Shown here: one piece after another, positions 6,602-32,000 of the stretch
How the letters are laid out: each line of letters begins with the position of its first letter
How positions within the stretch are numbered: position 1 is the stretch's first letter
Source: Candidatus Nitrospira inopinata
Lineage (GTDB): Bacteria > Nitrospirota > Nitrospiria > Nitrospirales > Nitrospiraceae
Direction of reading: 5' to 3'
Assembly: GCF_001458695.1 (NCBI RefSeq)
Contig: NZ_LN885086.1
Coordinates: forward strand, 3,090,001-3,122,000
DNA length: 32,000 nucleotides
Position numbers and translations under genes: made by a program
Notes under the pieces: model-generated
Told to the model about the DNA's origin: nothing
The model's database searches: none
The model's input: only the letters and a program-made list of their open reading frames with translations

Positions 6602-6628
6602 CACCTCTCCATCCTAATGAGACGGTCC

Positions 6629-6674: not shown

Positions 6675-6719
6675 CTGAGATAGTTTTCCGGGATAGTTTT
6701 CAAAGTTTCCTCTGACGAC

Positions 6720-6745: not shown

Positions 6746-6849
6746 GGAACCTTGAGGCATCGGCACCCGCAAAGAATATTCCGCGAGTCGCCCATGCCGG
6801 TGGGAGGAGGACTTGGGAGAGAACTTGCAAACCTTTGGGCAAAGACGAC

Positions 6850-8397
6850 TTACGATCCCCCGCTCGTCAACAGATCGAGCGTTCCCTCGGCCACCACTCG
6901 GACCTGGAGAGCGGCCTCGTCGGCAAACACGCCGATTCCCTGAAATGACGACAGCTTTCCCCGCATTACAAGATCCGGGCTCAATCGTTGATTCAGAACC
7001 GGAACGATGAGGTTTTGCATTTTTTTGGTGGCCTGCGTCACGCCGACGACGGCTTCCGTCGCAAGAAACCCGCGGAGCGAGGAATGAAACAACCACTTGG
7101 CGGATTTGCCTAGTTGTTGGGCGGTGGCCGCATCGTAACGAAGATTTTCAAAATAGAGGGTCTGGGTCAGCGGATTAAGGCGGGGCTTTCCCACCAAGTA
7201 CGCATGCCCCTCGGCATCCCCCCTGAAATCGATTCGCATCACCACCTGATTGCCGCCGTTGCTACGGACGGAGACCTCGGTGATGATAATGGAGCGGTCT
7301 TCATTGGACACACGCTCGCCTCTCAGCCGGTCGGTCAGCGCGTCGGAGAGTTTCTGATAGTCCATGCCCACGTCCGTAACCACGCGAAATCCGCGAGCCG
7401 TCGGTCGAGGGTCAAGCGGCGGAAGGGAGGCGGACGGGAGCGTCGGTTCGTCACCAAAGACGATCACGGGCTTCCCGATCATCTGAATCGTATCATGAAG
7501 ATGACGCCCCTCGCTGGCGAGTCCGCCGTGGGCGACGCGCTCCACATTGAACAGGAGCCACGCATCCGGGTTCAGTCGAACCGGTTTTCGCAGAAGCTTC
7601 CAGACCTGCTCGATCCGATCATTGAACGTCACCGTGTTCAGACGCTCGACCGCCTGTTGGAGCCCTCCCCGCACGCTGTCCGCGAGCGCTTTTTGGACCT
7701 CTTCCGCGACAACGTGTTCTTCGGCCCGGTCGCTCGCGCACGGATCGACTCCATGAACCGACACGTCGGCCACGGACGCGACCAAACGGAAATCCGGCGT
7801 CATATCGATCGCCACGCTTCCCGTCAACATCCCCTGTTTGGAACCTCCATCGCCGCCCCCGCACTGCGTGGGAACGCCGACCGAAGCCGTTTTCGGATGC
7901 ATTTCAATTTTGTACCGAAGAGGCGCGCTGACAAAGACGTTCGCCGACAGCTCCACGCCTTTCCACCAATCCCTGAGGGCGGCGCCGGCGTCCCGTCTCG
8001 CGTACAAGCCGGCGGCGGGAGCATTGATCGCAAAATCTTCGCGCTCGGCGTGGTACCTGTACATCGCGCCTTGAGCGCTTTTGCCGTCGGTTCCCCCCCG
8101 ATCAAACCGTTTGGGAATCACCTGTTCGTCATTGAGCACGTCGTTCAGCATTGATAGATCGGCGCGAATAGAAAAACTGATCGCGGAATCCGTTTCCGTC
8201 GCAGAAAGAGCCGGACGCTGCGCCGGGGGAAACGGTTCCGGAGCGGGAGGCTGAATGCGAGACGGCCCCAGCGAACAACCGGCAAAGAACAGCGCCACGG
8301 CCCACACGACACAAGAACGCCGCATCGCGATGATCGCGCATCGATGACAGCTCCACGGACGCCCGGCGATCCCTCTGCTCCTTCCGGCCGGCCTCAT
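6850..8397 (-). CDS. Hypothetical lipoprotein (about 490-515 aa), family not recognised (possibly DUF4403-like)
   Basis: The lipobox ALFFAGC in MRRSCVVWAVALFFAGCSLG implies an alternative start at 8325. The ATG at 8397 has a GGGAGGGAG SD. There are no catalytic motifs I recognise. Confidence 0.6.
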   Translation of the reverse strand: MRPAGRSRGIAGRPWSCHRCAIIAMRRSCVVWAVALFFAGCSLGPSRIQPPAPEPFPPAQRPALSATETDSAISFSIRADLSMLNDVLNDEQVIPKRFDRGGTDGKSAQGAMYRYHAEREDFAINAPAAGLYARRDAGAALRDWWKGVELSANVFVSAPLRYKIEMHPKTASVGVPTQCGGGDGGSKQGMLTGSVAIDMTPDFRLVASVADVSVHGVDPCASDRAEEHVVAEEVQKALADSVRGGLQQAVERLNTVTFNDRIEQVWKLLRKPVRLNPDAWLLFNVERVAHGGLASEGRHLHDTIQMIGKPVIVFGDEPTLPSASLPPLDPRPTARGFRVVTDVGMDYQKLSDALTDRLRGERVSNEDRSIIITEVSVRSNGGNQVVMRIDFRGDAEGHAYLVGKPRLNPLTQTLYFENLRYDAATAQQLGKSAKWLFHSSLRGFLATEAVVGVTQATKKMQNLIVPVLNQRLSPDLVMRGKLSSFQGIGVFADEAALQVRVVAEGTLDLLTSGGS

Positions 8398-8555
8398 GCT
8401 CCCTCCCGTCGCTTTTTTCTATCGATAGGGGGGCTAGCATACCAAAACCACGTAGAGCTTCGCAGCGAATATTTATGAGCGCATCTCGCTCCGGCCGGCG
8501 ATCGAACGGAGGGACACGCATCGATCCCGCGTTTCCGCAAAAATCCGGTGTTTTC

Positions 8556-8584
8556 TTGTCAGGGCGCAACCTCCCGGTTAGACT
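8556..8584 (+). promoter_or_regulatory. Candidate sigma-70 promoter for the 8597 gene
   Basis: TTGTCA (8556-8561), a 17-bp spacer, then TAGACT (8579-8584). The ATG at 8597 would leave only a very short leader. Confidence 0.3.
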
Positions 8585-8596
8585 TTTTTCACTCTC

Positions 8597-9832
8597 ATGA
8601 CACGCTCACGAAAAGCGGACGGCTCTCGGCTTCAGCCGCGAACCGGTACCACCGAAGCCATCGCCGATGTGACCGCCCGGCTTCAAGAGGTCCTCGCCTC
8701 CGTTCATGACCTGATCCGGGAAGGATTTCCCTATCGAGACGCCGCGAGGACCAAAGCCGAACTGCAACTTCGCGAGTGCATGAAACAGATTTTCGGCGAA
8801 CAGTCCCCCGAGTTTCAAACGTATCGTCACTACCGACTGCGGGTATCAAACCAGGCGGAAATCGCGCAGAGCATCGCGACCATTCAAAAGCTTCTCCGGA
8901 TCGTCCAAGACAAGGGATCGGGGCTTCAAACCCCTGTGCCGCCGCTTTCCTCCTCGACGCCGGCAACGGGCGTTCCCCTCGACACGGCGGAAATCCCCCC
9001 GCCCCCTCCTTCGCCAAAATCCGCGTCAAACCAGCCGGGCCGCCCGTCCGCGCCGCCGGAACTCACGGCAACGACAACGAATCCGCGGCTGCACGTCGCG
9101 CCGGTCGCTTCGCCATCTTCGCCGCCCGTCTCGACGAATGTTCCCACCGCGTCGCCGACGGCTCCGGAGAGTTCCGCCCCATCGCTACGGCCCGCGCACT
9201 CGCAACCGCTTTCTCCGGCCATGCCATCGAGTCCATCGCCTTCCTCAACGGGTGGAGACTCCACCCGACAACGGACATTCCCTCCCTCGACATCCTCGCT
9301 GGACACGTCTCCACCGAATACGGACGTCATCAGCCCGTCCTCCGGCTCCTCTTCGCTCAAGGCGGATTCCGAATGCGACTCGCTCCGGCTCGTCAGAAAA
9401 ATTTGCCTGCGGCTCCACGCGGTCGCTTGCCAACTGCGCCTCCGCAATGACTCTCGCCCGACGATCGAGATCCAGGACGACCTCGACGTGCAAGACCTGT
9501 TACGAGCCCTTCTGAAAATGGAATTCGACGACGTGGGGGTCGAAGAATGGACTCCATCTTACGCGGGAAACACGGCGCTCCCCGCGCTCTTGCTGAACGG
9601 CGAACACGTCACCGTCGTGGCGAAGAAAACTCGCCCCGGTTTGACGACGAAAGAACTTGCCGAACGGATTGCGGCGGACGCCGCCTTCCATGCCGCTCAC
9701 CGTCAACCCGGCACCTTGTTTTGCTTTGTCTATGACCCAGAGGGCCGCGTCGGCAGTCCCAAACAATTGGAAACCGAATTGGCCAACGCCGGGAACGGGT
9801 ACACCGTCGAAGTCCTTGTGGCGCCACGGTAA
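8597..9832 (+). CDS. Hypothetical protein: helical N-domain, ~160-aa Pro/Ser/Thr-rich linker, globular C-terminal domain
   Basis: 411-aa ORF. Residues ~115-275 are low-complexity P/S/T/A. The C-terminal ~130 aa (DLDVQDLLRALLKMEFDDVGVEEWTP...VTVVAKKTRP...LFCFVYDP) faintly resemble a restriction-endonuclease-like fold. Confidence 0.6.
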   Translation: MTRSRKADGSRLQPRTGTTEAIADVTARLQEVLASVHDLIREGFPYRDAARTKAELQLRECMKQIFGEQSPEFQTYRHYRLRVSNQAEIAQSIATIQKLLRIVQDKGSGLQTPVPPLSSSTPATGVPLDTAEIPPPPPSPKSASNQPGRPSAPPELTATTTNPRLHVAPVASPSSPPVSTNVPTASPTAPESSAPSLRPAHSQPLSPAMPSSPSPSSTGGDSTRQRTFPPSTSSLDTSPPNTDVISPSSGSSSLKADSECDSLRLVRKICLRLHAVACQLRLRNDSRPTIEIQDDLDVQDLLRALLKMEFDDVGVEEWTPSYAGNTALPALLLNGEHVTVVAKKTRPGLTTKELAERIAADAAFHAAHRQPGTLFCFVYDPEGRVGSPKQLETELANAGNGYTVEVLVAPR

Positions 9833-15770: not shown

Positions 15771-17171
15771 CTACCGTTCCCGAAGACTCTCGTTGACGGC
15801 CTTGAGGAGAGGACTCAGCAGGTATTCGACGACGCGACGCTGTCCCGTCTTGATCTCCACCGTCACCGCCATACCGGCCGACAGGCGCACGGGTTTGCCG
15901 TCGACATTGATGGTGTCGCGATCCAGACTCACCCTCGTCGGATACACCAGTCCCACCTGCTCCACCGGCACCGCGTCATCGGACACGACCAAAACCCGTC
16001 CCGGGACCGTTCCATAGAGCGTGAACGGAAAGGTCGCGACCTTGACTTCGACCGGCTGTCCCTCTTTCACGAAGCCCACATCCTTGTTCTCGACTTGGGC
16101 CTCGACTTCGAGGGCATGTTCCTGCGGGACGATCAGCAACAGTTGCTGAGCCGGCGTCACGACCCCGCCGACCGTGTGCACGGCCAACTGTTGGACGACC
16201 CCGTCGATGGGCGCCGAGAGCCGCTGCAACTCGGCTTTTTGACCCGCCTTGGTGGCCTCCTGCGCCAGCGAGACGATCTTCGTTTCGAGCGCAGCGAGTT
16301 CCGCCTGACGCGCCTGCTGAAATTCGGCCACCGTCGCTCGATAGTGTTTTTCGGCCTCTTCGAGCGCCGCGAGATCCTGTTGCAGTTTCTTCCGCTGAAC
16401 GGCCAGCTCCTGCGTCCGCTCGATCCGCTGAGCCTCGGCTTGCAGAAAATCCATTCTCGTCGCCGCCTCATGTTCCAGCAACCGCTTGAGGGTCTCGGCC
16501 CGCTCCTCTTCGATCGGCACCATCGCCTCCAAACGACGAATCTGCTCCCTGGTCTGTTCGACCGCGGCCCGGCGTTGCTGAATCTGTTGTCGAGCGACCT
16601 CCACCTTCGCCTGATACTCGTCCAATTGATCGCGCAGCAATCGCCGCTGGAGCTGCGCGAACCGTTCATCCGCATCCGTCGGCGCCTCGAAGAAATCCCG
16701 GCCGGCCACCAACGCCCGCAGCCGCGCCGCCTCGACCTTCGCCGCCCGAAGCTCGTTGAGCGCACGATCGCGGTCGGCGCGGTTGAGCGTGGGATCGAGC
16801 TCGATCAGCACGTCGCCCTTTCTCACGGTCTGCCCGTCCTGCACGTGGATCGCCGCGATCACGCCCGTTTCATAGGGTTGAATGACCTTGGAATACCCGC
16901 TGGGAATGATCTTGCCTTGCGCCGTCGCGACGATGTCGATCCAGCCGAGGGCGGCCCAGAGCGACCCGGCGGCGAAGAGCGCCAAAATGGTCCAGAGAAT
17001 GGCGCGGCCGATGGGCGGAGGCGGGGCCTGCTCGATTTCCAAGACCGCCGGCAAAAACTCCATCGCCCGGCGGTCCGGCGTCCGCGCGGAAGCGGCGTCT
17101 CCCGACGGGCCTTCCCTCTCGGCCCTCCACGCCTCTTTCCATATCGCCCAATGACGGCCCAGCGTCGTCAT
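15771..17171 (-). CDS. HlyD-family type I secretion periplasmic adaptor
   Basis: N-terminal FLPAVLEIEQAPPPPIGR followed by one TM helix, a lipoyl-like domain (GKIIPSGYSKVIQPYETGVI), a long coiled coil, and a C-terminal beta-barrel ending LLSPL. Confidence 0.92.
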   Translation of the reverse strand: MTTLGRHWAIWKEAWRAEREGPSGDAASARTPDRRAMEFLPAVLEIEQAPPPPIGRAILWTILALFAAGSLWAALGWIDIVATAQGKIIPSGYSKVIQPYETGVIAAIHVQDGQTVRKGDVLIELDPTLNRADRDRALNELRAAKVEAARLRALVAGRDFFEAPTDADERFAQLQRRLLRDQLDEYQAKVEVARQQIQQRRAAVEQTREQIRRLEAMVPIEEERAETLKRLLEHEAATRMDFLQAEAQRIERTQELAVQRKKLQQDLAALEEAEKHYRATVAEFQQARQAELAALETKIVSLAQEATKAGQKAELQRLSAPIDGVVQQLAVHTVGGVVTPAQQLLLIVPQEHALEVEAQVENKDVGFVKEGQPVEVKVATFPFTLYGTVPGRVLVVSDDAVPVEQVGLVYPTRVSLDRDTINVDGKPVRLSAGMAVTVEIKTGQRRVVEYLLSPLLKAVNESLRER

Positions 17172-17174
17172 GCG

Positions 17175-19358
17175 TCAACCTCCGTATCCTCCGGCCACCC
17201 TGGTTTGGTAGGCGTGGAGCCTGGCGTACAACCCGCCGGCCCGCAGCAATTCGTCATGAGAACCTTGCTCGATGATTTCTCCCCGCTCGACGACGTAGAT
17301 CCGGTGGGCTGGCCGCACCGTGCTCAACCGGTGGGCGATGATGATCACCGTTCGCCCCTTGGCGATCAGCGCCGTGTTGCGCTGGATGACGGCTTCGGAT
17401 TCATAGTCCAGGGCGCTGGTCGCTTCGTCGAAAATAAGGATGCGCGGATCCGCAATCAACGCCCGCGCGATCGCGATCCGCTGGCGCTGTCCGCCGGACA
17501 GCGAACAGCCCTGTTCGCCGATCACCGTGTCGTATCCCTCCGGCAACTCCAGAATGAATTCGTGCGCCCCGGCCAGCTTTGCGGCCTGAATCACCCGCTC
17601 CATGGACGAGCCGGGATCGGTCAGCGCGATATTGTCGCGCACCGATCGGTTGAAGAGAAAGTTCTCCTGCAACACCACGCCGACGTGCCGGCGCAACCAG
17701 GCCGGATCGACCTGCGCCAAGTCCACGCCGTCCACCAGCACGCGGCCCCGCTCCGGCACGTAGAGCCGTTGAATCAATTTCGCGATCGTGCTCTTCCCGG
17801 ACCCGGATCGCCCCACCAAGCCGACCACCTGCCCCGGCTCCACGACGAACGAAACTTTGCGCAGCACCTCCGGCCCGTCAGGCCGATAGCGGAACGTCAC
17901 ATCTTCGAACGAGACGCGTCCCGCCACGCGAGGCAACGTCGTCCGATTCGGATTGTAGGACGGCTCCGGCTGGGCGTTGAGCACGTCGCCCAACCGTTGC
18001 ACGGAAATCCCCACCTGCTGAAACTCCTGCCACAGGTTCACGAGCCGCAACAATGGTCCCGTCACTTGCGCCGCCAGCATGTTGAAGGCGATCAACTGCC
18101 CGATGCTGAGCTCGCCCCCGATGACCCGATAGGCGCCGACCCAGAGAATGGCCACCGTCGTGAGTTTTTGGACGGCGGTCGCCGCCTGTCCGGCGATCGT
18201 AATCAAGTTGGTCGCGCGGAAACTCGCCCGCACGTACCCGGCCAACTGCTCGTCCCACCGCCGCTGCAACGGAGGCTCGACGGCCATCGCCTTCACGGTC
18301 TGGATGCCGGTGACCGTTTCCACGAGAAACGCCTGGTTCTCCGCTCCCCGATTGAACTTCTCGTGCAACCGGGCTCGGATGGCCGGCGTGATGACGAGAG
18401 ACAGCCCGGCATAGAAAGGCAACGATGCAGCCACGACCAGCGTGAGCATCGGACTGTACAGCCACATCACGGCGAGAAAGACGGCCATGAAAAACAGGTC
18501 GAGCACCACCGTGACCGAGTTGCTCGTCAGAAACTGGCGGATGTGCTCCAGCTCGCGGACGCGGGCCACCGTGTCGCCGACCCGCCGCGCCTCGAAGTAG
18601 GCGAGCGGCAGCGCCAAGATGTGGCGGAACAGTTGCGCGCCGAGCCCCACGTCGATGCGGTTCGTCGTATGGGCGAAGAGGTAGGTGCGGAGGCCGCCGA
18701 GGACCGCCTCGAAGATCACGAGCGCGACCATGCCGATCGCGAGCACGTGGAGCGTCGTGAACCCCCTGTGCACCAGCACCTTGTCGATCACGACCTGCGT
18801 GAACAGCGGAGTCAGCAGACCGAACAGTTGAAGAACAAACGAAGCGACCAGCACCTCGCCGAGCAACTTTCGATATTTGACGATGGCGGGGATGAACCAA
18901 GCGAAGTCGAACTTCAGATCCTGCGGACGCAGATGGGCCCGTTTCGTAAAGAGCAGCACTTCGCCGCTCCAAAGCGCCTCGAACCGGTCGCGGGACAGGA
19001 CCAGCGGACGCGCCTCGACCGGGTCCTGCACCAACACCTTCTGTTCGTCGGCCTTGGCCAAGACCAGGTAACGGCCGTCGGCCCGCCGGACCATGGCGGG
19101 AAGCGGAAGAGTCGGCAACTTGTCCCACCTGACCGTTATGCGGCCCGCCTTGAGCCCCAAATGTTTCGCGGCGCGCACGAGATCCGTCGGAGACAGAGGC
19201 TCGTTCAACCGCGCGAACTGATGGCGCAGTTGCGACGCGTCGGCGGGCAGGTCGTAGAACCGAGCGAGAATCAGCAGACAGAGCAACCCGGTGTCCGCGA
19301 CCGCCGAAGACGGCTGGGATGAATCAGACGGAGAAGCGGCGTTGGCGTCATCCGGCAT
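17175..19358 (-). CDS. HlyB-family type I secretion ABC transporter (C39-like domain + TMD + NBD)
   Basis: Close by-eye match to E. coli HlyB (KFDFAWFIPAIVKYRK, VIDKVLVHRGFTTL, FEARRVGDTVARVRELE). Walker A GRSGSGKST, signature LSGGQRQR, Walker B ILIFDEATSALD. In the N-terminal C39-like domain, the residue aligning with the catalytic Cys is Thr (ADTGLL versus HlyB IDYGLY). Confidence 0.92.
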   Translation of the reverse strand: MPDDANAASPSDSSQPSSAVADTGLLCLLILARFYDLPADASQLRHQFARLNEPLSPTDLVRAAKHLGLKAGRITVRWDKLPTLPLPAMVRRADGRYLVLAKADEQKVLVQDPVEARPLVLSRDRFEALWSGEVLLFTKRAHLRPQDLKFDFAWFIPAIVKYRKLLGEVLVASFVLQLFGLLTPLFTQVVIDKVLVHRGFTTLHVLAIGMVALVIFEAVLGGLRTYLFAHTTNRIDVGLGAQLFRHILALPLAYFEARRVGDTVARVRELEHIRQFLTSNSVTVVLDLFFMAVFLAVMWLYSPMLTLVVAASLPFYAGLSLVITPAIRARLHEKFNRGAENQAFLVETVTGIQTVKAMAVEPPLQRRWDEQLAGYVRASFRATNLITIAGQAATAVQKLTTVAILWVGAYRVIGGELSIGQLIAFNMLAAQVTGPLLRLVNLWQEFQQVGISVQRLGDVLNAQPEPSYNPNRTTLPRVAGRVSFEDVTFRYRPDGPEVLRKVSFVVEPGQVVGLVGRSGSGKSTIAKLIQRLYVPERGRVLVDGVDLAQVDPAWLRRHVGVVLQENFLFNRSVRDNIALTDPGSSMERVIQAAKLAGAHEFILELPEGYDTVIGEQGCSLSGGQRQRIAIARALIADPRILIFDEATSALDYESEAVIQRNTALIAKGRTVIIIAHRLSTVRPAHRIYVVERGEIIEQGSHDELLRAGGLYARLHAYQTRVAGGYGG

Positions 19359-19415
19359 GGGTCCATCATAGCCTGAATTCCGTGAGAGAAAAACGGCTTC
19401 TCATTTTATGATTTT

Positions 19416-19925
19416 TTGCTCCTGCCGGACGATGGGAAGCGGCATGAGATCATCGAGGGAGATCTCTTCGTGACGCTCTCTCCTATAACCCGCCACCAAC
19501 TCATCATCGGACGGTTCCTTCATCGCCTGACGACGTATCGAGAAACCCATCCAGTCGGCATGGTCTTTACCGCTCCATACGATGTCGTGCTCAGTGAAAC
19601 CGATATCGTTCAACCCGATCTGCTCCTTGCGTTGCAGACAGGCCGTGCCGTCATGACCGAGAAGAACCTCCAGGGGCCGCCCGACTTGATCCTCGAAGTG
19701 CTGTCGCCAAGCACCGCGGCTCGTGACCGCGAATTGAAACGCAAACGATACGAACACTTCGGCGTGCGGAAGTATTGGCCGATCGACCCGGATGCCAACA
19801 GCCTTGATATGTTGGCATTGCAGGACGGGCACTATGCGCATGTCGGCCGGACAATACGCCCGGCCGAATGTGCGTCAATCCTCCGACCCGATCTCGTGTC
19901 AGACCTTGGCTCCCTCCTGCAGTAA
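19416..19925 (+). CDS. Uma2 family (DUF820) putative endonuclease, copy 2, with TTG start / clipped N-terminus
   Basis: LLPDDGKRHEIIEGD, VQPDLLL and PDLILEVLSPSTAARDRELKRKRYEHFGVRKYWPIDP parallel copy 1. Homology (FSFYDF) continues upstream of the only available start (TTG 19416), up to an in-frame TGA at 19383. Confidence 0.75.
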   Translation: MLLPDDGKRHEIIEGDLFVTLSPITRHQLIIGRFLHRLTTYRETHPVGMVFTAPYDVVLSETDIVQPDLLLALQTGRAVMTEKNLQGPPDLILEVLSPSTAARDRELKRKRYEHFGVRKYWPIDPDANSLDMLALQDGHYAHVGRTIRPAECASILRPDLVSDLGSLLQ

Positions 19926-20014
19926 CCGACTCCCCCTTCCCAACCGTTTACCTCTTACCTCGCTTTTCTTATTTTCTTTCTCATTCTTCTCTGTGCCGTT
20001 CACGTGTCATATCT

Positions 20015-23000
20015 TCATGCTTGCCAATGCGCGGCGAGGATCGCCTGAAACTGAGCCTGGTGCCCGCCGGTGCCGGCGCCGGTGGCCGCCGCCTCCCAGG
20101 CGAGGCCGGTGTCGGTCGTAAAGGTCGCCATGGCTTGGAGAAGCTGATGGACCTGCGCGGCGTGCAGCACCTGGCCCCCGGCTTCGAGGGTCTCGACCTG
20201 GTTATCCGGCCCGCGGAACCAGTCCCGGATCGTCACCGAATCCCGGCCGCCGGCCACGAGCACGCGCAGGTCGTCGGCCTGCCGACTCAGGATGAGGTCG
20301 GAGGGGCCACGGTCGCCTTCGAACACCAGCCGATCCGCCGTGCCCCCACGCTCGACGATCACGTCGCGGCCGTCGCCCGGCGCGACGCGATAGGTGTCGT
20401 TGCCCCGCCCGCCCACCAGATAGTCGTCCCCCCCGCGTCCGATCAACACATTGTCGCCGTCATTGCCCTGGAGCACGTTGCCCAACTCGTTGCCGACGCC
20501 GGTCAGGGTGTCCGTGCCCAGGAGGATCAGATCTTCCACGTGCGCGCCCAGGGTATAGTCGATCGTGGCTCGGACCGTCTCGAGTCCGCCGGCGTCGGTC
20601 TCGATGACCTGATCGTCGGGATGATCGACCACATAGGTATCGTGGCCCGGGCCGCCGGTCAGGGTGTCGGCCCCGGGACCGCCGTCCAGATAGTCATCGC
20701 CGGGGCCGCCCAGCAGGGTATCGGCGCCCGCGCCGCCCTCCAGCCGGTCATGGCCCCGGCCGCCGGTGAGCCGATCGTCGCCGGCCTGCCCGAGCAGGTG
20801 ATCAGGGCCCGCCCCGCCGGTGAGCCGATCGGGCCCCTCGGTGCCGACCCGCGGCGGCCGGAGCCTGGGAGAAGGGGCCAGGCCCGTGCCGTTCGCCCGT
20901 GCCGCGGCGCTCAGCCGCGCCGCCGCCGCCGGCACGGCGCCGGCCGCGATGGCGATCACTTCGATGTCGGTCGCGGCAATGGTTGGACGGGTGGTCAGCG
21001 TGGCAATCTGGACGGGGGCCGCGGCTCCGGTCCCGTCGGGATCGTAGAAGAGGTCCCCCGTGGTGGTGTTGTAGAGGATCCGCTGCGCGGCACTGTCCGC
21101 GCTGGTCACCCCGGCCCCGCTGCGCAAGGCTTGCACGGACACCGTGCCTAGCGGCAGGGCGCGAAAGATGGCCTGGCTCAAGACGATTCGGTCGGCGGCC
21201 GGTTGAAAATCGGTGATCTCCTCGATGTTGGTTGCGGCCGCAAGCGGCGCATACAAGACGAACTGATCGTTGCCCGCCCCGCCGGTGAGCCGATCATGCC
21301 CCGTGCCGCCCCAGAGTTGGTCGTCGCCCGTGCCCCCGTCGAGCACGTCGTGCCCCGCCCCGCCAAAGAGCCGGTCGTTGCCCGCCCCGCCCCGCACCAG
21401 ATCGCTCCCGCCTCTGCCGTCCAGCAGGTTGTGCCCGCTGTTGCCCTGGAGCAGGTTGCCACTGGCGTTGCCGACGCCGGTCAAATCCTGGTCTTCCCCA
21501 GGCGGCCGGTCGGTCAGGATGAGATCCTCAAGCGTAGGCCCCAGGGTGAACGAGAGACTGGCCAAGACGGTGTCGGTGCCCCCCACGCCGGTCTCGACGA
21601 TCTTGTCGCCCGCGTGATCCACGACATAGGTGTCGCTCCCGTTGCCGCCGGTCAGGGTGTCGGCCCCGGAGCCGCCGTCCAGATAGTCATCGCCGGGGCC
21701 GCCCAGCAGGGTATCGGCGCCCGCGCCGCCCACGAGAAGATCCGCCCCGGGCCCGCCGGTCAGCACGTCGTTGCCGCCCGCGCCATCCACCGTGAGGAAC
21801 GAATGGGCCCCCACAAAGAGCCGGTCGGGCCCCTCGGTGCCGGTCACGGTCAGCCCCACCGGCGCGCCGGTCGCATCATACCGCTGGGCATAGACGCCCC
21901 GGCCGGAGCCGTCCTGGCCATTCGACGTCCAGGCCACGACGAAGCCCCCATCCGCGAGAGCCGTGACGGTCGGCTGGGACTGACTATCGGCCGTGACGGT
22001 GTTGACCCGAAATTCCGCCCCCACTGGTTGGCCGCCGGCATTGTACCGCTGGGCATAGATGCCAGAGCCGGAGCCGTCCTGGCCAACGGATGTCCAGGCC
22101 ACGACGAAGCCCCCATCCGCCAGGGCCGTGATGGTGGGCTCGAACTGACTATTGGCCGTGACGGTGTTGACCTGAAATTCCGCCCCCACCGGTTGGCCGC
22201 CGGCATTGTACCGCTGGGCATAGATGCCACCAACGGAGCCGTCCTGGCCATTCGACGTCCAGGCCACGACGAAGCCCCCATCCGCGAGAGCCGTGACGGT
22301 CGGCTGGGACTGACTATCGGCCGTGACGGTGTTGACCCGAAATTCCGCCCCCACTGGTTGGCCGCCGGCATTGTACCGCTGGGCATAGATGCCAGAGCCG
22401 GAGCCGTCCTGGCCAACGGATGTCCAGGCCACGACGAAGCCCCCATCCGCCAGGGCCGTGATGGTGGGCTCGAACTGACTATTGGCCGTGACGGTGTTGA
22501 CCTGAAATTCCGCCCCCACCGGTTGGCCGCCGGCATTGTACCGCTGGGCATAGATGCCACCAACGGAGCCGTCCTGGCCATTCGACGTCCAGGCCACGAC
22601 GAAGCCCCCATCCGCGAGAGCCGTGACGGTCGGCTGGGACTGACTATCGGCCGTGACGGTGTTGACCCGAAATTCCGCCCCCACTGGTTGGCCGCCGGCA
22701 TTGTACCGCTGGGCATAGACGCCCAAGCTGCTGGGAGTGGAGCCGTCCTGGCCGAATGACGTCCAGGTCACGACGAAGCCCCCGTCGGCGAGAGCCGTGA
22801 CGGTGGGGTCGAACTGATCGTTGGCCGTGACGGTGTTGACCCGAAACTCCGCCCCCACCGGCCGGCCGCCGGCATTGTACCGCTGGGCATAGATGCCACC
22901 AACGGAGCCGTCCTGGCCGAATGACGACCAGGCCACGACGAAGCCCCCGTCCGCCAGGGCCGTGACGGTCGGCTGGTCCTGACCACTGGCCGTGACGGTG

Positions 23001-23575: not shown

Positions 23576-26167
23576 TCACGCCCCCTCACTGCCTGCGCCG
23601 GTCCAATGCGCGGCGAGGATCGCCTGAAACTGAGCCTGTTGCCCGCCGGTGCCGGCGCCGGCGGCCGCCGCCTCCCAGGAGAGGCCGGTGTCGGTCGTAA
23701 ATTGCACCATGGCCTGGATGAGCGACTCCACCTGCGTGTGGAGGAGGAGGTGCCTCGTGCCGGTCTCGATCGTCTCAACTTGATTGGCGGCGCCGACGTA
23801 CCAGTCCCGGATCGTCACCTGATCGGACGTTCTCCGCAAGGCCAACCGCAGGTCGTCGGCCTGTCGGCTGAGAATCACATCGACCGGAGCAGTCCCTCTG
23901 CCAAACAGCACCTTGTCGGCGGCCCCGTCGGTGTCTTGGATCACATCCTGTCCATCGCCGCGCCCGAACACATAGGTGTCGCTGCCCGCGCCGCCTATGA
24001 GTACATCGTTCCCCTGACCGCCGATCAAGACGTCATTGCCGACCCGGCCGTCGAGCCGGTCGTTGCCGGCCAACCCGATGAGGAGATTGTCGGCGCCATT
24101 GCCGATCAGTTCGTTGTCCAGAGCGTTCCCCGTCAGGTTCAGCTTCGTGTCCGCCGTGGAGCCGGCATCCAGTCGCTCCAGATTGGCTCCCAACGTGAGC
24201 GTCGTCGCCCTCATCAGATCGCTCACAATCCCTCGAAGGATGACCTGATCCGTTCCCTGATTCCGCCCCTCGGTGATCGTGTCTTCAAGCTTGACGGTGG
24301 CCGCCACCCCTTCACCTGCTCGGACAAGATCCACGAGGTAGGTGTCGTCCCCGGCCCCGCCGATCAGCCGATCCCTGCCGGCGCCGCCGTCCAAGGTATC
24401 ATCCCCCGCGCCGCCGCTCAGGGTGTCGGTGCCCGCGCCGCCCTCGAGCACATTGTTGCCGCTGTTGCCGATCAGGATATTATTCAGCTCATTGCCCGTC
24501 CCGGCGAGGTCGGCTGTCCCCGTCAAGGTGAGATGCTCCACGTTCGGCCCGAGCGTGAAGTCCACGGCGCTCAACACCAGATCGATCCCGCCCGCCGCCC
24601 CGGCCAGCGACTCCGTCACGGTATCGCCCAGACTGTCCACGATGTAGGTATCATTGCCGGCTCCCCCCTCCATCGCGTCATCGCCCACGCCGCCATCAAG
24701 CCGATCGTTCCCCCCGTTGCCGATGAGGGTATCGTTGCCCGCGCCGCCTTCGAGCACGTTGGCCGCGCCGTTGCCGATGATGACGTTGTTCAACTCGTTG
24801 CCCGTGCCATTGATGGGCTTAGTGCCGGTGAGGGTCAAATTCTCGAAATTCGGCCCCAAGGCATGGGTGATGGAAGATTCGACCAGGTCGGTGCCGGCGC
24901 CGGGCTCTTCCACGAGCACATCCGTCCCCTGGCCGATCACGTAGGTGTCGTCACCCGGCCCGCCGCTCAACGTGTCGTTCCCCGGCCCGCCGATCAGCCG
25001 ATCCCTGCCCGCGCCGCCGTTCAAGGTGTCATGGCCGGCATTGCCGACTAACACGTCGTCGAGATCCGTACCGGTGAGCACGTTGTCTCCTGCATTGCCG
25101 GTGATGGACAGCCCGTTGCTTACAGCGGACGCATCCACGTTCAGGGCGGTCTTCCCGGTCGTGACGCCCGCGGCGGTTCCAATCACGACACTTTCGATCT
25201 CCGTGACGCCCGAAGCCAAGACCAATGTCTGGCCCGGCACGACGCTCGCGAACCGGATCGTATCATCGCCGGCCCCACCCGCAATGACCTCCCCCGAACC
25301 GTGATCGGCGGCGTTTCTGATGACCACCGCGTCGTTTCCGTCTCCGCCCAGAATCGCGTCGTCGCCCGCTCCACCGTCAAGGACGTCGTCGCCGCTTCCC
25401 CCGCCCAGTGTGTCGCCATTGGGTCCGCCGATCGTGATGACGTCATTGCCAGGGCCGGAGAGAAAGCTCATGCCGGCGGCGCTGTTGTTCGTATAAATAA
25501 TGGTGTCGTTGCCGGTCATCTGAGCACCGACCACGGAAAACAGCTCACTCACCGTGGTGATCGTGCTCAAGGCACTATAGGGAATCGAGAGGCTTCTCAT
25601 CATGATCGTATCCGTGCCGGACATGATCGCAATCTGAGTGACGGTTCCACTGAGGTTGAAATCGACGTCCGCCACCAACGTACCCCTGATGGTGACGGTG
25701 GTGGAACCGAACGTTCCCCGTAATTCCGTAATCCGCCCCGACACGACGCCGCCGGCTTGGTTGACCACAATCTGGCCGAGCATCGTGAATTGAAAACTCG
25801 GCACTCCAATGGTGAAGCTCTTGACAACTTCGTTACCGACCCCGTCTAAGGTACCGGAAAATCTCAGCAACTCTCCCGTCGATGGATTGTTGAAGACAAA
25901 CGAATTGATGATCGGGTCGACATTGCGACCGAAGAACTGTGACCCCTTGGCGACGAGGGTCGCCCCGGCATTCGCCGATGGAGGAAGAAGTGTGATCGAA
26001 ACAGACGTCGAGGTAGCCGAGTTAACTATGAAATACCCCGCTGCAATGTCGGCTGAGATCTGTTCAAACCGACTAAAGAAGGTATTGAACTGCGTTTCGA
26101 CGTCGAAAAGAGCCCCTACATTCACCGTTGACCAATCGGTTGTCGTGGAACCAGTAATCAGCGCCAT
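23576..26167 (-). CDS. RTX-type calcium-binding protein P2 (863 aa): shared N-terminal module, RTX blocks, HCBP-related-like C-terminal module
   Basis: SD GGAGGTG lies before ATG 26167. The N-terminus MALITGSTTTDW has no signal peptide. It has numerous GGxGxD repeats and the C-terminal DKVLFGRG...VTIRDWY...[19 protein letters not shown]...FQAILAAHW. Confidence 0.9.
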   Translation of the reverse strand: MALITGSTTTDWSTVNVGALFDVETQFNTFFSRFEQISADIAAGYFIVNSATSTSVSITLLPPSANAGATLVAKGSQFFGRNVDPIINSFVFNNPSTGELLRFSGTLDGVGNEVVKSFTIGVPSFQFTMLGQIVVNQAGGVVSGRITELRGTFGSTTVTIRGTLVADVDFNLSGTVTQIAIMSGTDTIMMRSLSIPYSALSTITTVSELFSVVGAQMTGNDTIIYTNNSAAGMSFLSGPGNDVITIGGPNGDTLGGGSGDDVLDGGAGDDAILGGDGNDAVVIRNAADHGSGEVIAGGAGDDTIRFASVVPGQTLVLASGVTEIESVVIGTAAGVTTGKTALNVDASAVSNGLSITGNAGDNVLTGTDLDDVLVGNAGHDTLNGGAGRDRLIGGPGNDTLSGGPGDDTYVIGQGTDVLVEEPGAGTDLVESSITHALGPNFENLTLTGTKPINGTGNELNNVIIGNGAANVLEGGAGNDTLIGNGGNDRLDGGVGDDAMEGGAGNDTYIVDSLGDTVTESLAGAAGGIDLVLSAVDFTLGPNVEHLTLTGTADLAGTGNELNNILIGNSGNNVLEGGAGTDTLSGGAGDDTLDGGAGRDRLIGGAGDDTYLVDLVRAGEGVAATVKLEDTITEGRNQGTDQVILRGIVSDLMRATTLTLGANLERLDAGSTADTKLNLTGNALDNELIGNGADNLLIGLAGNDRLDGRVGNDVLIGGQGNDVLIGGAGSDTYVFGRGDGQDVIQDTDGAADKVLFGRGTAPVDVILSRQADDLRLALRRTSDQVTIRDWYVGAANQVETIETGTRHLLLHTQVESLIQAMVQFTTDTGLSWEAAAAGAGTGGQQAQFQAILAAHWTGAGSEGA
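24399..24998 (-). repeat. 600-bp block shared with P3 (partner 26884-27483)
   Basis: At a constant offset of 2485 nt, 24399-24745 equals 26884-27230 (347 bp, 100%) and 24794-24998 equals 27279-27483 (205 bp, 100%). The two runs are separated by a 48-bp diverged patch. Confidence 0.9.
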
Positions 26168-26447: not shown

Positions 26448-28988
26448 TTACTGCCAATTCGCAGCGAGAATATTTTGGAAGTCCGTCTGTTGTTGAGCGG
26501 TCCCGGCGCCGCCTGCCAGCGCTTCCCAGGAGAGGCCGGTCTGTCTGGTGAAGGTCGCCATGGCCTGGAGAAGCTGATTGACCTGGGTACTGAGCAAAAC
26601 CTGGCCGCCGCCCGCCTCGATCGTTTCGATGCGGTTGTTGGCGCTCGCGTACCAATTTCGAATCGTGACGTGATCCGATGTACCCTGGACCATGATCCGC
26701 AGGTCGTTGACACGCCGGCTGAGCACCAGATCGAACGGATCGATTCCACTGTCGAAAACAAGCCGGTCGGTCGTCCCGCCGCCGTCTTGAATCACATCTT
26801 GGCCGTCGCCGAGCCCGAACAGATAGGTGTCGTTCCCGCTGCCGCCGTTGAGCGTATCGTTGCCCGTGCCACCAGCAAGGATGTCATCCCCCGCGCCGCC
26901 GCTCAGGGTGTCGGTGCCCGCGCCGCCCTCGAGCACATTGTTGCCGCTGTTGCCGATCAGGATATTATTCAGCTCATTGCCCGTCCCGGCGAGGTCGGCT
27001 GTCCCCGTCAAGGTGAGATGCTCCACGTTCGGCCCGAGCGTGAAGTCCACGGCGCTCAACACCAGATCGATCCCGCCCGCCGCCCCGGCCAGCGACTCCG
27101 TCACGGTATCGCCCAGACTGTCCACGATGTAGGTATCATTGCCGGCTCCCCCCTCCATCGCGTCATCGCCCACGCCGCCATCAAGCCGATCGTTCCCCCC
27201 GTTGCCGATGAGGGTATCGTTGCCCGCGCCCCCGATCAGGATATTCGCCGCATTGTTCCCGATCAGCACGTTATCCAGCTCGTTGCCCGTGCCATTGATG
27301 GGCTTAGTGCCGGTGAGGGTCAAATTCTCGAAATTCGGCCCCAAGGCATGGGTGATGGAAGATTCGACCAGGTCGGTGCCGGCGCCGGGCTCTTCCACGA
27401 GCACATCCGTCCCCTGGCCGATCACGTAGGTGTCGTCACCCGGCCCGCCGCTCAACGTGTCGTTCCCCGGCCCGCCGATCAGCACGTCGTCCCCCGCGCC
27501 GCCGATGAGAACGTCGTGGCCGCGGGAACCGATGAGGACATTGTCCCCGGCGCCGCCAGTCGCCTCGACCACGCCGCCGAGCTTGGAGGCATCGAGGTTC
27601 TCAAAATTGCTCTGGACCGGCACGTCGAGCAGTCCCCCGATCGAGACCACTTGGTCCACCTGCGAGAGATCCACCAATACTCGTCGGTTGCCTGGCACGG
27701 CACCGACCAAGATCAGGGTATCGACACCAGTCCCCGCGTCGATCGTATCGACGTCGCCCGCCGTCACGAGCATTGTAATCCGGTCATGCCCCGCCCCGCC
27801 CAAGACGGCATCCTGCCCGCGACCTCCGTCCAACACGTCGTCGCCGTCGCCGCCATCGAGGGTATCGTTCCCTCGGGAGCCGATGAGGACATTGTCCCCG
27901 GCGCCGCCGGTCGCCGAGACAAACCCGACGATCCGAGAGGCATCGAGATGTTCCACATTGATTTGCGTCGGCCCATCCACCGCCCCGCCGATCGACACGA
28001 CTTGATCGGTCGTCGAGGATAGATTCACCACCACTTCCCGATCGCCGGGCACGGTGCCGGTCAAGACCAGTGTATCGATACCGGGCCCGGCGTTGATCGT
28101 GTCTGTGTTGCCTGGCGTCACGAGCATTATGATGCGATCGTTCCCTCCGCCGCCGATGATGGTATCCAGTCCTAATCCCCCGTCGAGCACATCGTCCCCG
28201 TCACCGCCGACCAATGTGTCGCCATGGGGGCCGAGAATCGTGATGCTGTCGTTCCCCGCGCCGCCGACGAACGTCATGCCGGCCCCGGAACGATTCGTAT
28301 AGGTGATGGCGTCGTTGCCGGGCATGTGGTTGCCGACGAATGCCAAGAGGTCTTCCACCGTCGCCAACGTATCGGCGGCCAACGCCGCTTCAATCCCATC
28401 CCATGAAAGAGAAAGGCCCGTCATGGTGATCGCGCCGCCGCCGGACACCACGGTGATGCCGGTGACCGTGCCGGCCATGCTCGCGCCGCTCAGATTACCC
28501 GAAAGACCGAAGGTCCCCCTGAAGGTGACCGTGGCGGAGCCCACCCTCGCAACCAACGACGTCAGGTTGCCGACATAGGCGCCACTGGTGAGAAAATTGT
28601 CGGGGATTTGGATAATGCCATTGACCGTTTCAAAAAAGCCGGATGAGCCGATTGTGGCCGAGGTCAGGATTTCCGTTCCTCCGTTGACGGTACCGGTCGC
28701 CCGAAGCACCTCGCCGCTGCCGTTGGCGGGGTTCTTAAAATCGATCGTTCTGATCACAGGAGCCGGGCCATCCAATCCGGAGCCGCTCAAGCTCAGCCGC
28801 CCTCCGAAACGCATATCGAGAACCAGGAGGGTCGAGCCGGGCGAGACGATGTCATAGTTGCCGCTGTAAAAAGCGGCCAGAAGCTGACGGACTCGCGACG
28901 CGAACGTATGGAAATGGCCGACAAAATCGACCCGACCGAGCGAAACGCCCGACCAATTGATCGTCGTGGACCCGGTGATGCGGGCCAT
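26448..28988 (-). CDS. RTX-type calcium-binding protein P3 (846 aa), paralogue of P2/P4
   Basis: N-terminus MARITGSTTINW. It has the same N-module, two ~95-aa internal modules (NDRIxMLVTxGxxDTIxAGxGxDTLxLxGxVPG...QVVSIGG...LDAS), RTX blocks, and the C-terminal DRLVFDSG...VTIRNWY...LQAMATFTRQTGLSWEA...ILAANWQ. Confidence 0.9.
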   Translation of the reverse strand: MARITGSTTINWSGVSLGRVDFVGHFHTFASRVRQLLAAFYSGNYDIVSPGSTLLVLDMRFGGRLSLSGSGLDGPAPVIRTIDFKNPANGSGEVLRATGTVNGGTEILTSATIGSSGFFETVNGIIQIPDNFLTSGAYVGNLTSLVARVGSATVTFRGTFGLSGNLSGASMAGTVTGITVVSGGGAITMTGLSLSWDGIEAALAADTLATVEDLLAFVGNHMPGNDAITYTNRSGAGMTFVGGAGNDSITILGPHGDTLVGGDGDDVLDGGLGLDTIIGGGGNDRIIMLVTPGNTDTINAGPGIDTLVLTGTVPGDREVVVNLSSTTDQVVSIGGAVDGPTQINVEHLDASRIVGFVSATGGAGDNVLIGSRGNDTLDGGDGDDVLDGGRGQDAVLGGAGHDRITMLVTAGDVDTIDAGTGVDTLILVGAVPGNRRVLVDLSQVDQVVSIGGLLDVPVQSNFENLDASKLGGVVEATGGAGDNVLIGSRGHDVLIGGAGDDVLIGGPGNDTLSGGPGDDTYVIGQGTDVLVEEPGAGTDLVESSITHALGPNFENLTLTGTKPINGTGNELDNVLIGNNAANILIGGAGNDTLIGNGGNDRLDGGVGDDAMEGGAGNDTYIVDSLGDTVTESLAGAAGGIDLVLSAVDFTLGPNVEHLTLTGTADLAGTGNELNNILIGNSGNNVLEGGAGTDTLSGGAGDDILAGGTGNDTLNGGSGNDTYLFGLGDGQDVIQDGGGTTDRLVFDSGIDPFDLVLSRRVNDLRIMVQGTSDHVTIRNWYASANNRIETIEAGGGQVLLSTQVNQLLQAMATFTRQTGLSWEALAGGAGTAQQQTDFQNILAANWQ
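26884..27483 (-). repeat. 600-bp block shared with P2 (partner 24399-24998)
   Basis: See the partner entry. The identity is exact apart from the patch at 27231-27278. Confidence 0.9.
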
Positions 28989-29127: not shown

Positions 29128-32000
29128 CTACACTCCCGCCGATTGCCAATTCGCGGCGAGGATGCCTTGGAACTGCGCCTGCTGTTGGGTCGTGCCACTC
29201 CCCCCCGCCGCCGCCTCCCAACTCAACCCCGTGTCGGTGGTGAACTGGGCCATGGCGTTGATGAGTTGTTGGACCTGTCCGCTCAGCAACACTTGCCCGT
29301 TGCCCGCTTGAAGAATGTCCACCCGATTGGAGGCGCTTCTATACCAGTGTTGAACCGTCACGTGGTCGGAGGTCCCGCGAATCGCCACGCGCAGGTCGTC
29401 GGCCTGCCGGCTGAGAATGAGATCCAGCGGATTGACCCCGCTGTTGAATTGCAATCGATCGGCGGTCCCGCTGCTGTCCTGAATCACATCTTGCCCGTCG
29501 CCGCGCCCGAACAGATAGATGTCGTTGCCCGCCCCGCTGATCAAAAGATCGTTGCCGCTTCCTCCTCCAAGAATGTCGTTGCCCGCGCCGCCGATCAACG
29601 TGTCGTTGCCGGCCCCGCCCATGAGCCGGTCATGCCCGTTCGATCCGATGATGTGATTGTCCCCCCCGCTGCCCGTCACCGTCACATAGCCGGTGATGCT
29701 TGAGGCGTCGAGATTTTCAAAACCGATCTGGACCAGAGTCTCCGCCACACCGCCGATCGATACGACGTGATCGCTCGTCGAAGAGAGGTTGACCACGACC
29801 TCCCCGTTGCCCGCCACGGCGCCGGTGAGGATCAACGTGTCGATGCCCGGGCCGGCATTGATGGTATCGACATTGCCAGCCGTCACGAGCATGGTGATCC
29901 GGTCATTGCCTCCTCCGCCGTTGACGATATCCTGCCCCGGTCCCCCGTCGAGCACGTCGTCGCCGTCGCCGCCATGAAGCGTGTCGTTCCCGGCGAGCCC
30001 CAGAAGCACGTTGTTGCCGCTGTTGCCGGTGAGGATATTGTCCAACCCATTGCCCGTGCCGTTGATGTTCGCCGTGCCCGTCAAGGTGAGATGCTCCACG
30101 TTCGGCCCCAGGGTAAAACTCACGGAACTCACGACCAGATCCACGCCTCCCGCCGATCCCGCCACCGTTTCGATCACCCTGTCCCCCACGTGGTCCACAA
30201 TGTAGGTATCGTCACCGGCTCCCCCCTCCATCCGGTCCGCTCCCGACCCGCCGTTGAGAGTGTTGTTTCCGCTGTTGCCGATCAACACGTTGTTCAACTC
30301 GTTGCCCGTGCCGTTGAGATTCGCCGTACCTATCAAGGTGAGATGCTCCACGTTCGGCCCCAGGGTAAAGCTCACGGAACTCACGACCAGATCCACGCCT
30401 CCCGCCGATCCCGCCACCGTTTCGATCACCTGGTCGCTCGCACTATCCACGATGTAGGTGTCGTTGCCCGCGCCGCCTTCCATCCGATCGGCTCCCAGCC
30501 CGCCGTCGAGCCGGTCGTTCCCCCCGTTGCCGATGAGGGTATCGTTGCCCGCGCCGCCTTCGAGCACGTTGGCCGCGCCGTTGCCGATGACGACGTTGTT
30601 CAGCTCGTTGCCTCGGCCGTTGATGGGCTTGGTGCCGGTGAGGGTCAAATTCTCGAAATTCGGCCCCAAGGCATGGGTGATCGAGGACTGCACCAAGTCG
30701 ATCCCTTCGCCGGATTGTTCTATGAGCTCGTCGGTTCCCTCGCCGATCACGTAGGTGTCGTTGCCGGAGCCGCCGACCAATGTGTCATTGCCGGGGCCGC
30801 CGATCAGCGTGTCATTCCCGGCGCCGCCGACCAACGTATCGTTCCCAGGCCCCCCGATCAACGTGTCATCGCCCGCGCCGCCATTGAGCGTGTCATTGCC
30901 GGCCATGCCATAAAGGGTGTTGGGACCGCCGTTACCGGTGATGACGTTGTTGAGTTCGTTGCCCCTGCCGATCAAGGCGCCGCCCGTCAATTCAAGATTT
31001 TCGAGATTGGCGCCCAGCGTATAATCGATCGGCGAAAATACCTTGTCGATCCCCGCATTCCGCCCTTCTCGGACGATGTCGCCGGGACTGTCCACTCGGT
31101 AAGTATCGTCGCCCAGTCCGCCGATCATGGTGTCGTTCCCGGTGCCGCCGTTGAGCACGTCGTTGCCGGGCGAGCCGATGAGGGTATTGTCCAGACTGTT
31201 GCCGGTCACGTTGACCGAGCCGACGACTCTCGAAGCGTCGAGATGTTCAAAATTGGCCTGCACCAGTCCGTCCGCCGCCCCGCCGATCGACACGACTTGA
31301 TCGGAGAGCGACAGGTTCACCACCACTTCCCCATTGCCGGGGACGGTGCCGGCCAAGATCAACGTATCGAAGCCCGGGCCGGCGTTGATCGTGTCCGTAT
31401 CACCGGGCGTGATCAGCATGGTGATGCGATCGTTGCCGTCCCCGCCGACGATCGTATCCTGCCCAGGCCCGCCGTCCAGCACGTCGTCGCCGTCGCCGCC
31501 GTTCAACGTGTCGCCGTGTGGGCCGCCGATGATGATCGTATCGTTGCCCGGCCCTCCATGGAAACTCATGCCGGCGCCGCTGTTGTTCGTATAAATAATG
31601 GCGTCGTTGCCGGTCATCCGATTGCCGATGTAGGTGAAGAGATCGTGGACCGTCGTCAGGGTGTCGTTGGCCAACGCGGCTTCAACGTCATCCCACGGCA
31701 GAGAAAGACCCGTCATGGTGATGGCGCTGCCGCCGTTGACCACGGCAATGGCGGTCACGGTGCCGGTGATGTCGGCGGCGCTCATGTTCCCCGAGAGACG
31801 GAACCTCCCGTTGAAGGTCACCGTCGTGGACCCGATCCTCGCCGCGAGCGACGTCAGAGTGCCCGTGTAGTTGCCGCTCGCGGCAATGAGCTGGATGGTG
31901 CCGTTCATCGTTTCAGAGAAGCCGGGGGAGCCGAGGGTGACGGCCGTGAGGGTTTCGATCCCGCCGTTAAAGGTGCCGACCGCGCGGATCACTTCGCCGC
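29128..32000 (-). CDS. RTX-type calcium-binding protein P4, 5'-truncated by the window edge
   Basis: More than 954 aa in the window. Residues at the window edge ([16 protein letters not shown]) align with P3 residues ~94-109, so about 90 aa of the N-terminus should lie beyond nt 32000. The C-terminal module is DRLQFNSG...VTVQHWY...[19 protein letters not shown]...[11 protein letters not shown]. Confidence 0.9.
30010..30500 (-). repeat. Internal ~252-bp (84-aa) tandem duplication in P4
   Basis: The core 30082-30178 versus 30334-30430 is 96/97 identical. It encodes [17 protein letters not shown]...[43 protein letters not shown] twice. Confidence 0.85.

Follow-up and report, generated by a model that had tools for sequence, protein, structure and literature searches.

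Indications of gene conversion in a tandem array of RTX genes of Candidatus Nitrospira inopinata

The RTX array and the tracts shared by its genes

The window analyzed here is a stretch of 32,000 nucleotides of Candidatus Nitrospira inopinata and corresponds to bases 3,090,001-3,122,000 of the single 3,295,117-bp contig of this closed genome. It contains four RTX genes, P1 to P4, located head to tail on the minus strand, and these otherwise divergent paralogues share discrete, nearly identical tracts which most likely go back to gene conversion. Each of the genes is intact (846-1092 aa) and has a start codon, an N-terminal domain and the C-terminus of the family, and the conserved C-terminal module is present in all four proteins. 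RTX GGxGxD nonapeptide repeats were detected in each of them (8-12 stretches per protein; Pfam PF00353, E 4e-60 to 4e-81), and judging from these repeats and the gene neighbourhood P1-P4 are putative substrates of the adjacent type I secretion system (T1SS). As an AmoA-family protein is encoded at G000:C1:1789061-1789768 (329.8 bits), the organism is a comammox Nitrospira, i.e. a complete ammonia oxidiser. A search of the genome found no array-like sequence elsewhere. The four genes are:

P1: 20015-23293, minus strand; RTX protein of 1092 aa with seven 55-aa repeats, RTX blocks and the family C-terminus (open reading frame (ORF); Pfam HemolysinCabind, 3.9e-60)
P2: 23576-26167, minus strand; RTX protein of 863 aa, probable recipient from P4 and P1 and probable donor to P3
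P3: 26448-28988, minus strand; RTX protein of 846 aa, probable recipient of a 205-bp and a 347-bp tract
P4: 29128-32000 in the window, minus strand; RTX protein of 1047 aa, whose gene reaches 32271, 271 nt past the window end

The most conspicuous tract is a 600-bp block, P2 24399-24998, which matches P3 at a constant offset of 2485 in 581 of 600 positions. All differences fall into a 48-bp island (19/48), which divides the block into two exact runs, named R2 and R1. The original prediction had described this block, its runs of 347 and 205 bp and the P4-like patch of 48 bp between them, and all of this could be reproduced. Its estimate that the surroundings are about 70% identical was generous: the identity of P2 and P3 is 68% over all aligned columns with the block included, and for the rest of the two genes a codon-based alignment gives values of 40-66% within the 5' half and of 61-83% within the 3' part. 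The two versions of the island are called type A and type B. No donor for type B was found elsewhere in the genome, where the best other match is 35/48. The parts of the block are as follows (H and P4r are genes of a sister lineage described below):

24399-24745, minus strand: R2 in P2, 347-bp tract equal to P3 26884-27230 (347/347)
26884-27230, minus strand: copy of R2 in P3 (347/347)
24794-24998, minus strand: R1 in P2, 205-bp tract equal to P3 27279-27483 (205/205)
27279-27483, minus strand: copy of R1 in P3, the presumably converted recipient (205/205; 27/205 from H)
24746-24793, minus strand: island of type A in P2, P4-like (46/48 to P4 30556-30603; 29/48 to P3; 2/48 from P4r)
27231-27278, minus strand: island of type B in P3, apparently unconverted native P3 sequence (2/48 from H)

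The ends of the block are straddled by direct repeats in P2 (24342-24402 and 24972-25032), which are 92% identical and carry the motif GGAGRDRLIGG. The P2-specific flank and the edge of the block thus make up one repeated unit.

The block is not the only case. An ungapped-diagonal scan of all gene pairs brought up a 182-bp tract shared by P2 and P4, which spans the island. Two further tracts of the original prediction, one at the 3' ends of P1 and P2 and one of P2 and P4 near 25469 and 31567, were recovered at 96/99 and 52/54 positions. The claim that the next segment of P1 resembles P3 holds for 35 nt only (20121-20155), where P1 matches its orthologue P1r of the sister lineage at only 17/30 positions; this is a possible micro-tract copied from P3 to P1. 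Over 20123-20260 a P3-like identity in P1 had to be rejected, as the codon identity equals the background. These tracts are:

24690-24871, minus strand: older, probably P4-derived tract in P2, 172/182 to P4 30500-30681, spanning the island
30500-30681, minus strand: P4 counterpart (probable donor) of the 182-bp tract
23603-23701, minus strand: 3'-terminal tract of P2, the last 33 codons before the tail, probably converted from P1 (96/99 to P1 20024-20122)
20024-20122, minus strand: P1 counterpart (probable donor) of the 3' tract (96/99)
25467-25520, minus strand: short P2/P4 tract in P2, 52/54 to P4 31565-31618, with 13/13 identical codons
31565-31618, minus strand: P4 counterpart of the 54-bp tract
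20121-20155, minus strand: micro-tract in P1, 33/35 to P3 26551-26585

Permutation of the alignment columns served as null model for identical runs. The longest runs observed were 341-347, 205, 76, 50 and 36 nt, and the permutation maxima were 22-39 nt for any pair. The island stands out in the same way at the informative sites between 24453 and 24998: 64 sites at which P2 equals P3 (61 in 24453-24689 and three in 24690-24745) are followed by the island with 17 sites of P2 equal to P4 plus two others, and then by another 37 sites of P2 equal to P3. That all 17 P2/P4 sites are contiguous among the 118 sites of both kinds (17 and 101) has a probability of 7e-19. The tracts are therefore discrete and end abruptly, and outside them the genes have an identity of 40-75%.

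Such tracts could in principle be kept alike if a critical segment of the protein were under purifying selection, and in all four genes the protein sequence of the modules and of the C-terminal region is indeed conserved. This explanation is refuted by the synonymous sites. Where the same residue is encoded, the same codon is used at 180/180 positions in the P2/P3 tracts, at 28/28 in the P1/P2 tract and at 52/58 in the P2/P4 tract, compared to a background of 0.44-0.53 outside the tracts for the same conserved residues. Furthermore, P3 and P4 encode similar residues in the region of the 3' tract, yet they differ from P2 at 29/99 nucleotides. As the identity of the P2/P3 and P1/P2 tracts is complete at synonymous sites, selection on the protein cannot explain it, and we give this possibility practically no weight.

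Orthologous genes of a sister lineage and the direction of copying

Scans of genome and metagenome contigs with P2 (near records excluded) yielded only relatives with an identity of at most 55%; nothing closer than about 72% nucleotide identity was found among the species representatives of the genus, and exact look-ups of the conserved neighbours PilZ and DksA returned the same strain only. DNA of a sister lineage was found through the cluster representative of the adaptor protein (membrane-fusion protein, MFP) of the T1SS. The order of its locus is QueC, cytochrome c, PilZ, P4r (1047 aa), H (975 aa), P1r (1090 or 870 aa), the ABC transporter, MFP and MalQ, with the RTX genes (L084-L093) at 2718-5861, 6001-8928 and from 9207 onwards. 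Hence, this lineage has three RTX genes compared to four in the window, and this was seen in at least 10 samples, which comprise metagenome-assembled genomes (MAGs) from NCBI, JGI metagenomes and Logan contigs. The identity to the window is about 95% at the nucleotide level overall, with 95.5% for the ABC transporter gene, 95.2% for P4/P4r and 93.5% for P3/H upstream of the block.

The gene H is a member of the 90% cluster of P3 and is identical across six loci from different samples. Its protein resembles P3 over residues 1-716, and the part from residue 477 up to the C-terminus resembles P2. Upstream of the block H differs from P3 at 3/62 and from P2 at 25/62 positions, and downstream of the block it differs from P2 at 1/59 and from P3 at 20/59, which shows that H is orthologous to P3 on the 5' side and to P2 on the 3' side. 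The sequence changes from P3-type to P2-type somewhere between the island and 24398, i.e. within R2. H looks like the product of a crossover or deletion between the same direct repeats, in which the 5' part of P3, one block and the 3' part of P2 were retained and 2485 bp were lost. N-terminal domains of the P2 type also occur in other species of Nitrospira; one example, with a frame of 872 aa, shows 56% identity, compared to 42-44% for P3 or P4, which indicates that the full P2 gene is old and the fusion derived.

The reverse history, in which three genes are ancestral and the 3' end of P3 together with the 5' half of P2 was inserted in the lineage of the window, is less parsimonious, because P2-type N-termini exist in other Nitrospira and the members of the family are collinear through both modules. 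In a wider sense the block itself might be explained by insertion instead of conversion, if either the two-module block or the whole P3-3'/P2-5' segment had been gained by duplication or by Campbell-type integration of foreign DNA into an ancestral three-gene array. Such an event would fit with the single gene of the sister lineage at the place where the window has two, and direct repeats on both sides would result if a circular molecule were integrated by one crossover. Nevertheless, we consider it highly improbable: collinearity through M1-M2 extends over P2, P3, P4, H and also Q5, a more distant gene, which means that the block replaced homologous sequence and was not added to it, and H has its own R1, 13% different, in the same place. 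Moreover, besides the P2-type N-termini, genes of about 870 aa are present in other Nitrospira species, and a simple duplication leaves the island within the block unexplained.

Under gene conversion, the sister lineage also allows conclusions about donors and recipients. In R1 the sequence of the window (P2 = P3) differs from H at 27/205 positions (13%), compared to an upstream orthologous level of 98/1505 (Fisher P = 0.0014). This excess indicates that R1 of P3 has been overwritten, and in this region P3 is closer to its paralogue P2 (0/205) than to its orthologue H (27/205). A different picture was obtained for the island, where the differences are 2/48 for P3-H, 19/48 for P2-H and 2/48 for both P2-P4 and P2-P4r. 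Therefore, type B represents the native sequence of P3, which also explains the absence of a genomic donor; a third donor for type B, considered before, was dropped once H had shown this.

The 182-bp tract has 10/182 differences between P2 and P4, 11/182 between P2 and P4r and 7/182 between P4 and P4r, which points to P4 as the donor and to an event at about the time of the split or earlier. The divergence of P2 and P4 is alike in the island (2/48) and in its flanks (8/134). Consequently, P2 contains one contiguous old tract, and P3 received the flanks from P2 without the island. A scenario in which P4 copied the patch into P2 after an event from P3 to P2 was rejected on the same grounds. Since the P4-like tract is contiguous in P2 and type B is native to P3, P2 is taken as the donor in the exchange with P3. 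In the 54-bp tract P2-P4, P2-P4r and P4-P4r each have two differences, which favours no direction.

At the 3' end P2 differs from P1 at 3/99, from P1r at 5/99 and from H at 10/99 positions; H is 10-11/99 away from P1 and P1r, and P3 or P4 differ at 29/99. These values suggest repeated homogenisation of P1 and P2 at this end of the gene, presumably the region of the secretion signal; the latest copying probably went from P1 to P2 in the lineage of the window. The donor tracts resemble their own orthologues at background level (P4-P4r 7/182, P1-P1r 6/99): copying is non-reciprocal and the donors keep their sequence. With regard to age, the tracts copied from P2 to P3 contain no difference in 552 bp, whereas an exchange dating back to the split should have left about 25. 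Its age is therefore below about 12% of that of the split. Taken together, we infer copying from P4 to P2 (182 bp, 10 differences) and from P1 to P2 (99 bp, 3 differences), and then from P2 to P3 (552 bp, 0 differences).

Two other regions of local divergence were noticed. Within R2, H differs from the window at 14/60 positions between 24480 and 24539 (flanks 3-6%), partly towards P4-type bases; this cluster may reflect a further small local exchange in one lineage. In the N-terminal domain, P3 28584-28673 is only 68% identical to H over about 90 nt in a region of otherwise 93-99% identity, and there is no clean donor among P4 and P4r. An inspection of the informative sites of P3, H, P4 and P4r in the 5' half revealed no clean further tract.

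The shared block in assemblies of the same strain

The 600-bp identity might be an assembly artefact, if two repeats that are similar but not the same had been collapsed or wrongly joined. P2 or P3 is present as an exact copy in several assemblies of what is evidently the same strain (GCA_001458755.1, GCA_041694755.1 and the JGI metagenomes 3300044940, 3300044961, 3300045912 and 3300045922), and over 12-15 kb these differ from the window only in the 48-bp island and in the repeat number of P1, which has one 330-nt unit fewer. The island is of type A in both genes in L045 and L046 and of type B in both in L048; among partial contigs, L050 has type A in P3 and L053 type B in P2, which places them with the A/A and the B/B group, respectively. 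No short-read assembly has the A/B arrangement of the window, and contigs break inside the block. The A/A and B/B versions are probably a result of short-read collapse, as the tandem loop consisting of block, 1.9 kb and block would be traversed twice by a de Bruijn assembler via one popped bubble.

It follows that short-read assemblies do mishandle the island, and the varying number of 330-nt units in P1 adds to this concern. On the other hand, any further real difference between P2 and P3 in R1 or R2 should vary between assemblies in the same way as the island, and none does, which supports the identity of the tracts. The draft GCA_001458755.1 has the same phasing as the window, with A in P2 and B in P3, and type B in P3 also agrees with H, in which a B-like island is linked to a P3-type 5' flank in a single-copy context. 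A small confirmation derived from reads comes from Logan contigs (k=31) of separate runs, which end exactly at the shared exact runs: contigs of two runs end at 30652, which is 30 nt into the 50-nt exact run 30632-30681, and another one stops at 31275, where a run of 30 nt in common with P3 is over. Based on these findings there is only a very slight chance that the block is an assembly artefact.

The same observations could also be read biologically, as the effect of a programmed, high-frequency variation of the contingency or antigenic type, by which the island and the tracts are switched often within a clone. Assemblies from several samples of the strain, otherwise without differences over 12-15 kb, show A/B, A/A or B/B, the youngest tract is without a substitution, and P1 contains a perfect repeat of period 330 (21904-22719, 816 bp or 2.47 units, within the array of 55-aa repeats) whose copy number differs between assemblies. 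The short-read assemblies are, however, all homogeneous or broken, which is the signature of a bubble collapse in a loop of two repeats. In addition, neither silent nor truncated cassettes are present and every one of the four genes is full-length, only about five tracts are visible against an orthologous divergence of about 5%, and H is invariant in six loci. The differences between A and B are mostly of the synonymous type and not adenine-specific. For these reasons we regard programmed switching as very unlikely. A pattern like that of diversity-generating retroelements was not seen either, as the 19 differences between A and B span all base classes and lie largely in third positions (a reverse transcriptase gene was not searched for).

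The P1 protein has 982 aa in every other assembly of the strain and 1092 aa in the window, and the length of P1r varies between samples as well (1090 or 870 aa). The missing 330-nt unit can be either a real copy-number variation or a short-read collapse. It is rather unlikely, if somewhat less so than a programmed mechanism, that both the island differences (A/B, A/A, B/B) and the copy number of P1 are real and the array switches fast among cultures or samples of one strain. If true, conversion and slippage would be frequent enough to show up within a single comammox strain, and this would be a locus that rapidly varies secreted RTX proteins in a free-living nitrifier.

Mechanism and meaning of the exchanges

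Gene conversion by ordinary homologous recombination, together with unequal crossing-over, is the best-supported explanation for these data. We are fairly confident that the array is a tandem family of secretion substrates which evolves by ectopic homologous recombination between the shared RTX/beta-roll modules of about 300 nt and the C-terminal region. The original prediction of a non-reciprocal recombination that both homogenises and reshuffles modules is in line with the synonymous identity, the sharp edges, the paralogues being closer than the orthologues and the fusion of a P3 5' part with a P2 3' part; for its word "ongoing" the zero substitutions in 552 bp are the only argument. Its comparison with contingency and antigenic-variation loci did not hold up, as we see full-length genes, no silent cassettes and a handful of events over about 5% divergence.

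The history would have started with the copying of the 182-bp stretch of P4 into P2, at or before the split of the sister lineage. The last ~100 nt of P1 may then have been copied onto P2 repeatedly, as H is 10% and P2 of the window 3% different from P1. Very recently P2 would have been copied onto P3 on both sides of the island, which is locally the most divergent part (19/48 or 40% different, compared to 13% in R1) and would have been left in its native state. Either two separate events stopped at the island and left it out, or a single long heteroduplex was formed and patchy mismatch repair may have brought the native sequence back. These repeats could also have recombined reciprocally in the sister lineage, by which the intervening 2.5 kb would have been deleted and the 5' half of P3 fused to the 3' half of P2. 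The machinery is presumed to be the general RecA-dependent recombination with no dedicated element.

Several points weigh against this interpretation. The five A/A or B/B assemblies mean that either some of them are wrong at this site or the strain is polymorphic, and it is from assemblies that the A/B phasing and the complete identity of both R1 and R2 are known. The direction of copying is less secure for R2 than for R1; R2 of H, which is 3-6% different from the window over most of its length, is maybe of P2 descent. Moreover, the deletion from four to three genes was preferred to an insertion from three to four by parsimony only, and the dependence on RecA is an assumption.

Gene conversion and concerted evolution among bacterial paralogues have been established for a long time, for example for tufA/tufB of Salmonella and for rRNA operons. 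The array shares with them the non-reciprocal copying within one genome, paralogues that are more similar than orthologues within the tracts, identity at synonymous sites, sharp ends and recurrence at the same place. In contrast to these systems, the family consists of four tandem genes for modular, secreted RTX proteins, and the tracts are short (35-350 bp) and patchy instead of gene-wide, with one unconverted island of 48 bp. Mosaic alleles are also known from the leukotoxin gene lktA of Mannheimia, where they arise by intragenic recombination between strains. These are RTX-gene mosaics too, but they are allelic and formed between strains or species by horizontal transfer, whereas paralogues within the genome of one non-pathogenic nitrifier are involved here. 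Antigenic variation in pilE/pilS of Neisseria and vlsE of Borrelia is based on cassettes. The unidirectional copying of short segments between related sequences of exported proteins is similar, but neither silent cassettes nor an asymmetry of an expression site nor a specialised cis element was seen in the array.

The mosaic RTX genes within one genome of Xylella fastidiosa are reported to have orthologous C-termini and other parts that have been exchanged, which was attributed to recombination among RTX loci (PMC5935956). In Xylella whole N-terminal regions appear to be swapped and small duplicated N-terminal modules were proposed to be mobile (PMC5935956); the exchanges reported here are homologous, in register and within the RTX modules and the C-terminus, and there are no small cassette genes. 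For yeast FLO genes, ectopic recombination between tandem or subtelomeric paralogues is reported to yield chimeric surface-protein genes (PMC3512402), and H appears to be the same kind of product, a chimera of paralogous repeat-rich genes for exported proteins, with the difference that FLO genes encode eukaryotic adhesins. Our literature search found no paper linking Nitrospira inopinata with RTX proteins and no relevant paper combining gene conversion with RTX paralogues.

The array is followed downstream by the genes of the secretion system and malQ:

17175-19358, minus strand: T1SS ABC transporter with an N-terminal C39-like domain (Pfam ABC_membrane, ABC_tran, Peptidase_C39)
15771-17171, minus strand: T1SS membrane-fusion protein, an adaptor of the HlyD family (Pfam HlyD_3 and related)

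The adjacent arrangement of a C39-like ABC transporter and a HlyD-type adaptor recurs in the sister lineage and in two other Nitrospira loci (G014 and L068), and across Nitrospira synteny is kept at this locus, from PilZ/cytochrome c on one side to ABC-MFP-MalQ on the other, with a varying RTX content. L068 has three RTX genes at the locus, encoding 1957, 1003 and 939 aa. G014, which is a MAG, has six RTX genes of 1050-2843 aa (C3:141241-184736) and, in addition, an ORF of 450 aa between the MFP and MalQ genes; when its six-gene array was scanned, tracts of high identity were rare (one of 244 bp at 95% between Q1 and Q3, besides repeats within genes). In the window, P1 and the ABC transporter gene are separated by 656 nt (19359-20014), and this gap carries a Uma2-like ORF on the plus strand (19416-19925). 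In the sister lineage the gap between P1r and the transporter gene measures 147 nt and is without this ORF, which is thus a lineage-specific insertion or loss.

The finding does not reveal a new mechanism. Although the case is clear, recombination between repeated genes is an ordinary process of a known kind, and its value lies mainly in how cleanly the history can be resolved. From a practical point of view, the locus marks a spot where short-read assemblies of this organism are unreliable. Within an otherwise syntenic locus of Nitrospira the RTX array is the fastest-changing part, its gene number being three, four or six in related genomes. As donors and recipients could be named and relative ages assigned, it provides a well-resolved natural case of how ordinary recombination keeps a tandem family of secreted repeat proteins partly uniform and at the same time reshuffled.

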